From: Escherichia coli
Lineage (GTDB): Bacteria > Pseudomonadota > Gammaproteobacteria > Enterobacterales > Enterobacteriaceae
DNA length: 64,000 nucleotides
Reading direction: 5' to 3' (one strand)
Assembly (NCBI RefSeq): GCF_002854065.1
Contig: NZ_CP024147.1
Positions 10,172 to 13,432 of this stretch are shown here, piece by piece. The notes under the pieces were generated by a model. That model worked only from the letters and a program-made list of their open reading frames with translations, had not been told where the DNA came from and searched no databases. Each line of letters begins with the position of its first letter. Position 1 is the first letter of the stretch. The position numbers and the translations under genes were made by a program.

Positions 10172-10879
10172 ATGAAACCCGTCGTGCTGGTGGTGGATGA
10201 TGACACGGCTATCTGCGCACTGTTGCAGGACGTGTTAAGTGAACATGTCTTTACGGTTTCAGTCTGCCATACCGGACAGGAGGCCATATTGCGTATTGAG
10301 GGCGATCCTGACATTGCGCTGGTGGTGCTGGATATGATGCTACCCGATACCAACGGCCTGAGGGTATTGCAGCAAATCCAGAAACTGCGTCCGACATTGC
10401 CGGTGGTGATGTTGACCGGCATGGGCAGTGAGTCTGATGTGGTGGTCGGGCTGGAAATGGGCGCGGATGATTACATCTGCAAACCGTTCACCCCGCGGGT
10501 GGTGGTCGCACGACTGAAAGCGGTGTTGCGACGGGTTGGTGCGCTGGCGGTTAATGACGAGAAAAGCGCCGGGCTGTCATTCAATGGCTGGTATCTCGAT
10601 ACCATGCGCTGCCAGTTGCACAATCCGCTTCAGCAACATGTCGAGTTAACTCAGGGCGAATATGGCTTGTTACTGGCTCTGGCGCAAAACGCGCGTCGGG
10701 TATTGAGCCGCGAGCAGTTGCTGGCGTTCACCCACAGCGACAGCGTGGAGGTGTTTGATCGCACCATCGACGTATTAATCATGCGCTTACGACGCAAAAT
10801 CGAACTCAACCCGCATCAGCCGATGTTGATTAAAACTCTGCGCGGTCTGGGGTATGTCTTCGCTGCCGACGTGCATTAA
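10172..10879 (+). CDS. OmpR/PhoB-family response regulator (receiver plus winged-helix)
   Basis: MKPVVLVVDDD...ALVVLDMMLPDTNG receiver motifs, C-terminal LRGLGYVF wing; GGAG 7 nt upstream of ATG at 10172 (track ORF begins at 10154). Confidence 0.85.
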   Translation: MKPVVLVVDDDTAICALLQDVLSEHVFTVSVCHTGQEAILRIEGDPDIALVVLDMMLPDTNGLRVLQQIQKLRPTLPVVMLTGMGSESDVVVGLEMGADDYICKPFTPRVVVARLKAVLRRVGALAVNDEKSAGLSFNGWYLDTMRCQLHNPLQQHVELTQGEYGLLLALAQNARRVLSREQLLAFTHSDSVEVFDRTIDVLIMRLRRKIELNPHQPMLIKTLRGLGYVFAADVH

Positions 10880-11877
10880 TCCGACATTTCTGTTTGCAGC
10901 TCTTCCAGCGTTTTCGCCCCGTCGATGGCATTGGCGCATAACAGGCTTGCCCGCGCGCAGGCGTGTGCCAGTTTGATGCTCTCGGTAAGCGTCCAGCGTT
11001 CATGGCAGCCATATAAAAATCCGGCACAAAATGCATCGCCCGCGCCGACGCTGCCGATAATTTCCCGTTGTTCTAACTTTTGCGAAGGGATCCACACGCC
11101 GCCCTGTTCTGGGGTCTCTCCCCACGCCCCTTCCGGGCAGTGGATCACCACCCGCTGGCGCACGCCCGCATCTAACAGTTCACGCGCGGCGGCAGCAATA
11201 TGCGCGATATGCGGTTCGCCGTTGGGTAACCGAATTTCCAGCCCGCTAAACTCCCCGGCCTCCAGTTCGTTAATTACCAGATAATCCAGATGGCGCAACG
11301 CGGGCAGCACCAGCGGCTGATAACGCGGATCGCCCTTACGGGAGACCAGGTCGAGTGAGGTTTCAAAGCCAGTATCACGCATTTGCGCCAGCAGGCGTGC
11401 GCTACGGGTGCCGTAAACATCGTCCGGCATATCCAGGCTGTCGAGCAACAGTAAATAGCCGAGATGGAAAATCTTCATGGTGTTATCGAGCTGATCGAAC
11501 GCCGGAAGATCCAAAAGTCTGTTTGCACCCGGCGAATGGAAAAACGTCCGCTGCCCGCTTGGGTCTGTCATCACCTGCGACATCGACGTCGGGGCAAAGG
11601 TAGTGCGCTGCACATGCTGACGATTGACGTGATATTGCTCAAGCATCGCCATGATGTAATCGCCGTCGCTGTCCTGACCGATTAGCCCAACCGCCTGTAA
11701 CGGTAGCCCGGTGCGCATTTTCGCCAGCGTCAGCAGGACGTTAAGCGGCGCACCGCCGGTGGAGCGTTCGCTGTGGGTGATCTCCGCCAGCCAGCCGCGC
11801 TCTGGCCACTGGATAATCTGATGGACGTGGTCAACCAACATATTGCCTGCGGCGATAATCCCTTTACGCTCCATCAT
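10876..11877 (-). CDS. PfkB-family carbohydrate (or sugar-phosphate) kinase
   Basis: C-terminal GAGDAFCAGFLYG, the PfkB/ribokinase signature 2; 333 aa. Confidence 0.8.
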   Translation of the reverse strand: MMERKGIIAAGNMLVDHVHQIIQWPERGWLAEITHSERSTGGAPLNVLLTLAKMRTGLPLQAVGLIGQDSDGDYIMAMLEQYHVNRQHVQRTTFAPTSMSQVMTDPSGQRTFFHSPGANRLLDLPAFDQLDNTMKIFHLGYLLLLDSLDMPDDVYGTRSARLLAQMRDTGFETSLDLVSRKGDPRYQPLVLPALRHLDYLVINELEAGEFSGLEIRLPNGEPHIAHIAAAARELLDAGVRQRVVIHCPEGAWGETPEQGGVWIPSQKLEQREIIGSVGAGDAFCAGFLYGCHERWTLTESIKLAHACARASLLCANAIDGAKTLEELQTEMSD

Positions 11878-12734
11878 GCCTGCCCCGCACTGCCAAAAAT
11901 ACGCATCTGTTGTGCAACCGTATCGCTGATGGCGGCTTCCACTGCCAGCAGTAACTCGGCAAACTCGTCATACATCGGCTGACGGTGCGCCATTCGGGCC
12001 TCAACGGCAGCCAGCGCCGCTTGCGACATGCCAGTGTAGAAATTGATTTTGTGGATACCCAGTTCGATGGCGCGGCGGAAATCGGCATCACTAATCCCTG
12101 AGCCGCCGTGTAATACCAGCGGGATAGCAGCCTGCTGGCGGATAGCGTCGAGGCGCGGGAAATCGAGTTTCGGTTCGCCGCGATATTTGCCGTGTGCATT
12201 GCCAATCGCCACGGCCAACGCGTCAATGCCGGTACGGTCGACAAAATCACGCGCCAGTTGCGGATCGGTAAACAGGGATTCATCGGCATGACCATAGAGC
12301 GCACCGCCTTCGTCGCCACCCACCGCGCCCAGTTCAGCTTCTACCGATACGCCAACGGCATGGCACATTTTCACCACTTCCCGCGTCTGGCGGACATTTT
12401 CTTCATACCCCAGCGTGGAGCCATCAAACATTACCGAGCTGAATCCCAGCCGCAACGCTTGCACCACCGATTCAAAATGCAGTCCGTGATCGAGATTTAA
12501 CACCACCGGAATGGCATGACGCGCCGCTTCAAATTTCACTGTCTCGACCAGGGAATCCAGCGAGATATATTTAAAATGTACTTCGGCAATGTTGATAATA
12601 AAGGGCGAACGTTCTTGTCTGGCAGCAGCAAACAAGGCGCGTAAAAAGTGCGAGTCCAGCACATTAAACGCACCTAACGAATAGTGATGTTCGCGGGCAT
12701 GTGCCAGCCCTTCAGCGAGAGAAATCAATGGCAT
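11874..12734 (-). CDS. Class II ketose-bisphosphate aldolase (GatY/KbaY/FbaA family)
   Basis: 286 aa; NLDHG, SVMFDGS, VEAELG, LAVAIGNAHG, LVLHGGSG blocks align with class II tagatose/fructose-bisphosphate aldolases as recalled. Confidence 0.8.
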   Translation of the reverse strand: MPLISLAEGLAHAREHHYSLGAFNVLDSHFLRALFAAARQERSPFIINIAEVHFKYISLDSLVETVKFEAARHAIPVVLNLDHGLHFESVVQALRLGFSSVMFDGSTLGYEENVRQTREVVKMCHAVGVSVEAELGAVGGDEGGALYGHADESLFTDPQLARDFVDRTGIDALAVAIGNAHGKYRGEPKLDFPRLDAIRQQAAIPLVLHGGSGISDADFRRAIELGIHKINFYTGMSQAALAAVEARMAHRQPMYDEFAELLLAVEAAISDTVAQQMRIFGSAGQA

Positions 12735-12748
12735 AACTTTATCCTTAT

Positions 12749-13432
12749 TCAGCGGAACTGGCGGTATTCGTTACACAATACCAACTGTGCAGGTTCGTCT
12801 TCGTCAATCAGGTTGTAGCGGGCCAGCGGGCGTAAAAAGTGGTTATCATGGTCGTCGTCATTGACTGAAGAGACTTCGCCAACCAGCACATCGCCAAAAC
12901 CGGTTTCCGCCCAAAAACTGTGATAAAGGCCGGGTGGCAGGCAGATACTTTCGCCGGGGGTCAGGCGTAACTGACTGCCTGCGACATGGGTCTGGCGGCA
13001 GCCGTCGATCACCACCGTAACGTCGGTATCAACTGTTTGCTCGTTGCTATCGGCATTCCACAGTTCAACAATCAAATTGCCGCCGCCGCGATTGATAATG
13101 TCCTCGCGCTTACGCCAGTGAAAGTGCATTGGCGTGACCTGCGCATCGCGCACATGCATGATCTTCTCGGCGTAACATTTCACATACGGCATTCCTTTTG
13201 CTGAGCCGTTACGTAGGGTAAACAGCGTCAGCCCCTGTGCTGCAAAGTTGTTGCCACCAAAAGCGGTAACATCCCAGCCGAGTTTGAGATCAAAAACTTC
13301 CTCCCACGCGGCGGTGTCGAGCTGCTGCCATTGGGCAGGCGAGAAACTGGCAAAGGGCGGAAGATGTACGTCATGTTGCGAAAAGAATTGCCGTGTATGG
13401 CCGAGAATGTCGTTTATAGCGGAGCGTTTCAT
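12749..13432 (-). CDS. Cupin-fold sugar isomerase (D-lyxose/D-mannose isomerase-like)
   Basis: 227-aa ORF with His-rich cupin core (MHFHWRKRED, LYHSFWAE); matches in length and neighbourhood a cupin D-lyxose isomerase family that I recall from enterohaemorrhagic E. coli. Confidence 0.6.
   Translation of the reverse strand: MKRSAINDILGHTRQFFSQHDVHLPPFASFSPAQWQQLDTAAWEEVFDLKLGWDVTAFGGNNFAAQGLTLFTLRNGSAKGMPYVKCYAEKIMHVRDAQVTPMHFHWRKREDIINRGGGNLIVELWNADSNEQTVDTDVTVVIDGCRQTHVAGSQLRLTPGESICLPPGLYHSFWAETGFGDVLVGEVSSVNDDDHDNHFLRPLARYNLIDEDEPAQLVLCNEYRQFR

Follow-up and report, generated by a model that had tools for sequence, protein, structure and literature searches.

A candidate ketose 1-phosphate route encoded by the O-island OI-167 sugar operon of Escherichia coli

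What does a sugar isomerase do together with a PfkB-family kinase and a class II aldolase when the three are encoded side by side, and at which carbon would the kinase place its phosphate? The question is raised by a 64,000-nucleotide stretch of an E. coli chromosome (contig NZ_CP024147.1; hereafter the window, meaning the whole stretch analysed), which carries these genes within OI-167, an O-island of the O157:H7 lineage. The two-component system of this island has been tied to the activation of virulence genes, yet of the three enzymes only the isomerase is characterised. The range 10876-13432 is filled exactly by three open reading frames (ORFs) on the minus strand:

10876..11877, minus strand: PfkB-family sugar kinase, 333 amino acids (PF00294), predicted ketose 1-kinase
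11874..12734, minus strand: class II (PF01116) aldolase dependent on dihydroxyacetone phosphate (DHAP), 286 amino acids (NCBIfam NF005284, residue alignments)
12749..13432, minus strand: D-lyxose/D-mannose isomerase (EcSI, Z5688), cupin fold, Mn-dependent, 227 amino acids (NCBIfam, PDB, literature)

Our reading, held with moderate confidence, is that D-mannose or D-lyxose would be converted to fructose or xylulose, then to the ketose 1-phosphate, and finally to DHAP and an aldehyde. An ATP-binding cassette (ABC) system would import the free aldose and EcSI would turn D-mannose into D-fructose and D-lyxose into D-xylulose, two steps that have been shown for the respective protein families. The kinase is then predicted to phosphorylate the free ketose at C1, and the aldolase to cleave the ketose 1-phosphate into DHAP and an unphosphorylated aldehyde, D-glyceraldehyde from fructose 1-phosphate and glycolaldehyde from xylulose 1-phosphate. 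No second kinase would be required. Alternatively, a xylulokinase could take the D-xylulose; in E. coli this would be XylB of the host, and in a relative it would be an XylB encoded within the operon. The island, EcSI and the regulatory pair RbfSR are already known; what is new is the predicted specificity of kinase and aldolase and the conservation of the module across phyla.

The enzymes of the module

The isomerase of the window is the already characterised and solved EcSI (Z5688) of E. coli O157:H7. It matches PDB entries 3KMH and 3MPB over its full length (residues 1-227; E = 9e-154), scores 439 bits against NCBIfam NF051472 (D-lyxose/D-mannose isomerase; Pfam PF07385; cut-off 350) and differs by one residue from the protein of O157:H7 strain TR01. 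According to the literature, EcSI is Mn2+-dependent and acts on D-lyxose and D-mannose, the two substrates reported from substrate screening. Both are used about equally, with a kcat/Km ratio of D-mannose over D-lyxose of 0.75 (PMC6746899), and D-lyxose isomerases other than EcSI take several lyxo-configured sugars (PMC8378251). The identity of the substrate, which the original prediction left open, has become less so, given a characterised isomerase and the presence of xylB or of GH92 alpha-mannosidase genes beside the module in relatives.

From its residues, the aldolase can be assigned to the class II DHAP-dependent FBA/TBA superfamily (PF01116). It scores 578 bits against NCBIfam NF005284 (cut-off 406), its best-scoring solved relatives are fructose 1,6-bisphosphate (FBP) aldolases of class IIb, and its identity is 37% to GatY, 36% to KbaY, 40% to YdjI (the closest E. 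coli paralog) and 25% to FbaA. In the alignment, D82, H83, E134, E142, H181, H209 and N231 correspond to FbaA D109, H110, E174, E182, H226, H264 and N286. K183, S212 and T234 are also kept, so that the catalytic and DHAP-site set is complete, and the motifs GNAHGKY, HGGSG and NFYT are conserved.

The distal 6-phosphate pocket of FBP and tagatose 1,6-bisphosphate aldolases was looked for in the same alignments, and all three of its ligands were found replaced by non-cationic residues. The first position is A50 in the window aldolase, S61 in FbaA, T50 in GatY and KbaY, and Ser in the FBP aldolases of Bacillus and Staphylococcus. The second (N+6), cationic in class IIb enzymes, is S237, the equivalent being K236 in GatY and KbaY and Arg in SqiA. 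At the partner-subunit arginine of the “DPR” motif (R331 in FbaA, R280 in the H. pylori enzyme, R257 in GatY and KbaY, “YDPRK” in Gram-positive FBP aldolases) the window aldolase has F258/A259 (“YDEFA”). We take S61 and R331 of FbaA to be distal-phosphate ligands; the twelve FbaA residue numbers that we used all land on the expected residues in the alignment. These roles were also cross-checked against a structural study of class II sulfofructose-phosphate aldolases, according to which class II FBP aldolases bind the 6-phosphate through Ser49 and Arg259 from one protomer and Arg280 from its partner, with Ala in place of Arg280 in the sulfo-enzyme (PMC10665668).

YdjI, to which the K-12 annotation assigns the cleavage of a ketose 1-phosphate, has the same pocket losses, with no equivalents of S61 and R331. 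These losses also extend to the ca. 28 aldolases adjoining members of the kinase subfamily in Enterobacteriaceae, Edwardsiella, Bacteroidales and Clostridia, all of which have Ala50 (“AEV”) and lack the DPR arginine. Position N+6 is Ser or Cys in nearly all of them, Gln or Val in two, and Arg only in locus L027, a divergent copy paired with an FGGY kinase. This aldolase clade has no pocket for a second phosphate. The original assignment to a GatY/KbaY-type bisphosphate aldolase is not supported, considering that identity is only 36 to 37%, that the three distal-phosphate ligands are missing, and that a tblastn search with GatZ gave no match to a GatZ/KbaZ partner in the 64-kb window or in 80 related loci.

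The kinase is clearly a member of the PfkB/ribokinase family of carbohydrate kinases: its homologs are pre-annotated as PF00294, and G41-G42 (the lid dipeptide), N203-E206 (NxxE) and G278-A279-G280-D281 (GAGD, with the catalytic Asp) are invariant in the family alignment. Its subfamily comprises 321 clusters at 50% identity (E < 1e-30). It did not reach the cut-off of any curated equivalog model for ribokinase, fructokinase, 1-phosphofructokinase, tagatose kinase, 2-keto-3-deoxygluconate kinase or IolC. The best score against curated NCBIfam models was 73 bits (IolC N-terminal domain; cut-off 300), with 46 bits for fructokinase (cut-off 450) and 25 bits for tagatose kinase (cut-off 420), and the closest PDB sequence match reached 43 bits. 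The AlphaFold2 model (mean pLDDT, the predicted local distance difference test, of 96) has a ribokinase-like fold, and Foldseek aligned it to ribokinases with TM-scores of 0.8-0.89; the structural neighbours are ca. 20% identical, ribokinases coming first, and include YdjH (3IN1/3H49) and YihV, both annotated as acting at C1. NCBIfam, the PDB sequence search and Foldseek returned only distant relatives of the kinase and did not discriminate its regiochemistry. A profile comparison matched human ketohexokinase (KHK) with 98.8% probability and 18% identity, D16, N46 and the family-invariant R110-T111 falling on KHK D15, N45 and R108-T109. This alignment is suggestive only, a lead, because the lid arginine could equally bind phosphate. 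Since the structural neighbours are so distant and are led by ribokinases, the last two steps of the route rest on the aldolase pocket and the gene context, from which we infer phosphorylation at C1 by the kinase and a preference of the aldolase for 1-phosphates.

The module in other genomes and the competing routes

The kinase alignment was used to scan one genome per species, which gave 80 loci, 77 of them analysed for neighbours: ORFs were called and compared with a reference panel, neighbouring genes were clustered, and recurrent clusters were annotated. A PF07385 isomerase (short forms confirmed by Pfam) was a neighbour of the kinase in 21 of the 77 loci and a class II aldolase likewise in 21, followed by a mannitol-1-phosphate-dehydrogenase-like enzyme (15), a Gfo/Idh/MocA oxidoreductase (11), a GH92 alpha-mannosidase (7) and a class I DhnA-type aldolase (6). 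Loci with the full trio belong to Enterobacteriaceae (L011-L016), Edwardsiella (L026, where a XylE-like porter and a weak mutarotase match also occur), Bacteroidales (L020) and Clostridia/Christensenella (L032, L034, L047, L053, L054 and L090). Kinase, isomerase and aldolase are thus conserved as a unit, including in distant gut bacteria. It is mainly this conservation in several phyla that supports the general sequence proposed originally, from aldose to ketose, ketose phosphate and triose phosphate. In L020 and L090 a GH92 alpha-mannosidase adjoins the trio, and such neighbours point to mannose as the substrate in anaerobes.

The kinase is regularly paired with a class II or class I aldolase or with a mannitol-1-phosphate-dehydrogenase-like enzyme, and therefore its product seems to need a dedicated downstream enzyme. 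Fructose 6-phosphate or xylulose 5-phosphate would need none, and for this reason we favour a ketose 1-phosphate as the product. The same reading is favoured because the DHAP site of the aldolase requires a phosphate at C1, and because the known pairs of a PfkB kinase with a PF01116 aldolase that has lost the pocket (YdjH/YdjI and YihV/SqiA) are 1-phosphate systems.

Two relatives carry a second kinase gene. In L007, whose PfkB kinase is 50% identical to that of the window, the island is the same, with a xylB gene (577 bits against the XylB model, cut-off 380) between the genes for the binding protein and the isomerase. This suggests that the pentose branch may run through xylulose 5-phosphate, which would leave the kinase/aldolase pair mainly for the hexose branch. 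In the clostridial L054, the trio has directly upstream of it a gene of the 1-phosphofructokinase/tagatose-6-phosphate kinase (FruK/LacC-like) subfamily. A 1-phosphofructokinase at this place would fit fructose 1-phosphate as the product of the PfkB kinase, and a tagatose-6-phosphate kinase would fit a bisphosphate route. The original statement that only one kinase is encoded is correct for the island and for the entire window, and fails for the syntenic relative with xylB.

Other arrangements were observed around members of the kinase subfamily. In L010, L022, L035, L042, L043, L048, L050, L055, L057, L070, L079, L080 and L088, the place of the aldolase is taken by a mannitol-1-phosphate-5-dehydrogenase-like gene, which scores ca. 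280 bits and so stays under the curated cut-offs; in some of these loci the isomerase and GH92 are present too. Speculatively, fructose 1-phosphate could be converted there to mannitol 1-phosphate and, by the symmetry of mannitol, on to fructose 6-phosphate. We also considered that these Mannitol_dh-family neighbours might make fructose from mannitol upstream of the kinase, an idea rejected because similarity to mannitol-1-phosphate dehydrogenase implies a phosphorylated substrate. A tree of the kinases, built to split those linked to aldolases from those linked to dehydrogenases, gave no clean split: the contexts are interspersed, and aldolase and dehydrogenase alternate as partners within the same branches. 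In L060, L067, L063, L072, L084 and L087 (Pedobacter, Verrucomicrobia and one Rhizobiaceae genome), the kinase is accompanied by a Gfo/Idh/MocA oxidoreductase and an aldolase of class I (DhnA type), in most cases beside a short PF07385-like cupin; here the DhnA-type enzyme seems to have replaced the class II aldolase non-orthologously. Finally, three clostridial loci (L064, L073 and L081) share the order AraC regulator, PIG-L-type deacetylase, NagB-like protein, kinase and aldolase, suggesting that the kinase/aldolase pair also serves an N-acetyl-amino-sugar route ending in a ketose.

Several points weigh against phosphorylation at C1 and cleavage of a 1-phosphate. The position phosphorylated by a PfkB kinase cannot be read from its sequence, and a literature search retrieved no paper on the island kinase or aldolase genes and no enzymology of either. 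Mutants of FbaA R331 still cleave FBP with a raised Km, so that loss of the ligand lowers bisphosphate activity without excluding it. The second kinases of L007 and L054 also fit 5-phosphate or bisphosphate routes. FruK, acting on fructose 1-phosphate, and XylB, acting on xylulose, make an extra aldolase look partly redundant in E. coli, and the island has no gene for handling glyceraldehyde or glycolaldehyde. There is, besides, the name that NCBI gives to the family of the aldolase (NF005284), “ketose 1,6-bisphosphate aldolase.” Taken at face value, this name supports a route through bisphosphates, in which the island kinase would make fructose or tagatose 6-phosphate, host PfkA or PfkB would add the C1 phosphate, and the island aldolase would cleave the 1,6-bisphosphate, whether as part of a path from D-talose to D-tagatose or as a simple bypass through FBP. 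The membership in PF01116 with class IIb FBP aldolases as the best-scoring solved relatives, the FruK/LacC-subfamily kinase adjoining the trio in L054, and the action at C6 of most characterised PfkB fructokinases and tagatose kinases are all in its favour. We nevertheless consider it unlikely, as the distal-phosphate ligands are non-cationic in nearly every kinase-linked aldolase examined (with a cationic N+6 position only in L027), no GatZ/KbaZ was found in the window, and fructose 6-phosphate needs no dedicated aldolase. Moreover, none of the 80 loci has a talose- or tagatose-specific gene beside the module, and the neighbouring mannosidase and xylB genes suggest mannose and lyxose. The original prediction had offered two alternatives; action of kinase and aldolase on a 1-phosphate ketose is the one favoured, and D-talose/D-tagatose with a borrowed host phosphofructokinase, for which no positive evidence was found, is the less probable one.

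Somewhat less probable again is that the kinase alone completes the pathway, giving fructose 6-phosphate or xylulose 5-phosphate, and that the aldolase is auxiliary, either an extra FBP isozyme or an enzyme for another sugar phosphate. For many relatives of the kinase, no aldolase gene lies within 6 kb, and in one relative, L007, the xylB gene makes the formation of xylulose 5-phosphate part of the module. With EcSI as the only added enzyme, E. coli reportedly grows on D-lyxose (van Staalduinen, 2010), so that host enzymes would finish this branch. However, the kinase and aldolase genes overlap by 4 nucleotides in the window and adjoin each other in 21 of 77 loci, which span several phyla. Loci that lack the class II aldolase have a class I aldolase or a mannitol-1-phosphate-dehydrogenase-like enzyme in its stead elsewhere, as if the product needed conversion. 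The kinase also scores far below the curated fructokinase and ribokinase models, and its coexistence with xylB in L007 indicates that the two are not redundant. The chemistry could otherwise be as we propose and the sugar a different lyxo-configured one: D-talose/D-tagatose, L-gulose/L-sorbose, L-ribose, or a 6-deoxy sugar such as D-rhamnose, which could be phosphorylated only at C1. Other D-lyxose isomerases accept several such sugars (PMC8378251), an aldolase without a distal anion pocket would suit 6-deoxy ketoses, and the ligand of the binding protein cannot be read from its match to PDB 4RWE. Against this, the screening of EcSI reportedly found D-lyxose and D-mannose, the GH92 and xylB neighbours fit mannose and lyxose, and no deoxy-sugar gene is present, so that we regard another sugar as improbable.

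If the 1-phosphate route is true, these aldolases would be a new specificity clade within the class II FBP aldolase family, whose members are now automatically named “ketose 1,6-bisphosphate aldolase.” A function would also be provided for a PfkB subfamily that numbers several hundred sequence clusters and is frequent among bacteria of gut and rumen, and metabolic engineering would gain a natural pair of enzymes for the routes it uses through xylulose 1-phosphate and fructose 1-phosphate. Were the bisphosphate reading true instead, the locus would be an ordinary accessory sugar operon.

Genomic setting, importer and regulators

The island corresponds to OI-167 of EDL933 (O157:H7), namely the sugar operon plus both flanking regulator genes, and in this genome it lies between yjcS and yjdP/phn. 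Apart from the trio, the following features were recognised:

10172..10879, plus strand: OmpR/TorR-type response regulator (Z5684 = RbfR; RefSeq annotation of strain 100416, NCBIfam response-regulator matches, PMC9860305)
13487..14428, minus strand: RbsB-type periplasmic sugar-binding protein with signal peptide (NCBIfam, PDB 4RWE)
14447..15421, minus strand: ABC transporter permease, RbsC/AlsC type (NCBIfam)
15418..16937, minus strand: sugar ABC transporter ATPase with two nucleotide-binding domains, frameshifted in the window (comparison with E. coli relatives)
16974..17024, minus strand: putative operon promoter and tandem repeat (candidate found by eye, its promoter role presumed)
17051..19315, plus strand: hybrid sensor histidine kinase resembling TorS (Z5692 = RbfS), encoded divergently from the operon
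19428-20060, plus strand: GNAT N-acetyltransferase gene, between the sensor kinase gene and yjdP

The six genes for the ABC importer and the trio fit a single operon, of which the trio is the distal half, because the spacing between genes ranges from -4 to 54 nucleotides and a promoter/terminator scan inside the operon found no internal signal above shuffled background. The aldolase and kinase genes overlap by 4 nucleotides, and the gaps are 14 nucleotides between isomerase and aldolase, 54 between binding protein and isomerase, and 18 between permease and binding protein. The original observation is confirmed: the trio has the coordinates given, its family assignments lie far beyond chance, and its spacing agrees with an operon shared with the importer. 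The rbfR gene is convergent with the operon and overlaps the stop of the kinase gene by 4 nucleotides; in O157, the kinase ortholog lies between Z5684 and the isomerase gene z5688.

In E. coli K-12, the slot between yjcS and yjdP (4306870-4313799, L091) contains the D-allose operon alsRBACEK plus rpiB instead of OI-167. The two are alternative sugar cassettes at one chromosomal site, each with an RbsB-type ABC importer. A 6.9-kb query covering rbfR, the operon and the first 46 codons of rbfS was matched by 421 of 5426 complete E. coli genomes, with pig, chicken, otter, wastewater and human stool among their hosts and sources. Over window positions 10100-17000, the closest strain is 100416, with two single-nucleotide polymorphisms, both synonymous, and one 1-nucleotide indel in 6.9 kb; the identity to O157:H7 is 98.8%. 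The GNAT gene is present in the window strain and in strain 100416 and absent from O157:H7 TR01.

The importer resembles the CUT2 (RbsABC) type. Its binding protein gave 558 bits against PDB 4RWE, a near-identical “sugar-binding transport protein,” with the ribose-binding protein 2IOY as the next best match. Binding protein and permease are intact, and the ATPase frame is broken in the window and intact in the compared genomes. The cause is a 1-nucleotide deletion, GGG to GG on the plus strand, at 15689-15691, found in none of the compared E. coli genomes. It leaves 415 of the 506 residues in frame, and the shift sets in just ahead of the second Walker B motif. It is either a strain-specific pseudogene or a sequencing error. 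Because of this frameshift, uptake of the sugar may be disabled in this genome.

RbfR and RbfS (Z5684/Z5692) have been described as a riboflavin-responsive activator of the genes of the locus of enterocyte effacement (LEE), in a study that does not discuss the sugar genes and that reports rbfSR only in O157:H7, O145:H28 and O55:H7 (PMC9860305). In our comparison, the TorS/TorR-like pair stays syntenic with the sugar operon across genera, which suggests that the operon is the native target of RbfSR; the flanking pair probably controls it. The divergent region of 113 bp contains a tandem repeat, ATATGAC-AA-ATATGAA, at 17009-17024, directly upstream of a promoter candidate with CTGACA (16997-17002), a 17-nucleotide spacer and TGTGAT (16974-16979). 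This repeat, which is also conserved in the loci of Citrobacter, Enterobacter and Leclercia, resembles a TorR box, the consensus of which we take to be CTGTTCATAT. Such a resemblance agrees with the synteny kept between the operon and the TorS/TorR-like pair. No sigma-70-like site was detected upstream of the operon in the promoter scan against shuffled background, the listed candidate having been found by eye, and the published 21-bp RbfR motif of ler had no match within 3 mismatches in the window.

Comparison with known systems

EcSI (PDB 3KMH, 3MPB) differs in nothing material from the window isomerase, being the same protein, and the published work concerns the isomerase only. For the remaining steps, a close parallel is found in sulfo-EMP, the Embden-Meyerhof-Parnas pathway of sulfoglycolysis, where the isomerase YihS, the PfkB sulfofructose 1-kinase YihV and an aldolase, YihT or the class II SqiA, follow the same three-step logic with phosphorylation at C1. 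SqiA belongs to class II PF01116, cleaves a ketose 1-phosphate and has Ala at the position of the partner-subunit Arg280 (PMC10665668); it scores 194 bits against the window aldolase and retains the N+6 arginine, where the latter has Ser. The sulfo-EMP substrate is, however, a 6-sulfonate, the isomerase is of another family, and the island has no sulfolactaldehyde-handling genes. In E. coli K-12, YdjH and YdjI represent the same two families as the island kinase and aldolase, also encoded by adjacent genes, and are annotated for L-glycero-L-galacto-octuluronate and its 1-phosphate. They differ in their long acidic ketose substrate and in having neither an aldose isomerase nor an ABC importer, and the kinases are only ca. 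24% identical. GatY and KbaY have the fold, metal ligands and DHAP-site residues of the window aldolase, but they have retained T50, K236 and R257 as ligands of the 6-phosphate and act together with GatZ/KbaZ, while no Z subunit is encoded in the window.

Bacterial isomerase-kinase-aldolase trios that convert a ketose 1-phosphate to DHAP and an aldehyde are found in the L-fucose and L-rhamnose operons. Their enzymes are unrelated to those of the island, comprising FucI/RhaA isomerases, FGGY kinases and FucA/RhaD class II aldolases of adducin-type fold. The chemistry that we propose is identical to that of mammalian fructolysis (ketohexokinase plus aldolase B) and of the synthetic xylulose-1-phosphate pathway built on it. 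KHK is also a PfkB-family enzyme, and aldolase B is a class I (Schiff-base) aldolase, in contrast to the class II enzyme of the island, whose pairing with the kinase has a predicted function. More tentatively than for the route itself, we suggest that OI-167 and the modules of Clostridia, Bacteroidales and Edwardsiella could be a natural bacterial counterpart of fructolysis and of the xylulose-1-phosphate pathway, with a KHK-like kinase, and that the E. coli module could be switched by RbfSR, the pair that drives the LEE. If true, a dietary or mucosal sugar signal would be tied to the virulence of enterohemorrhagic E. coli.

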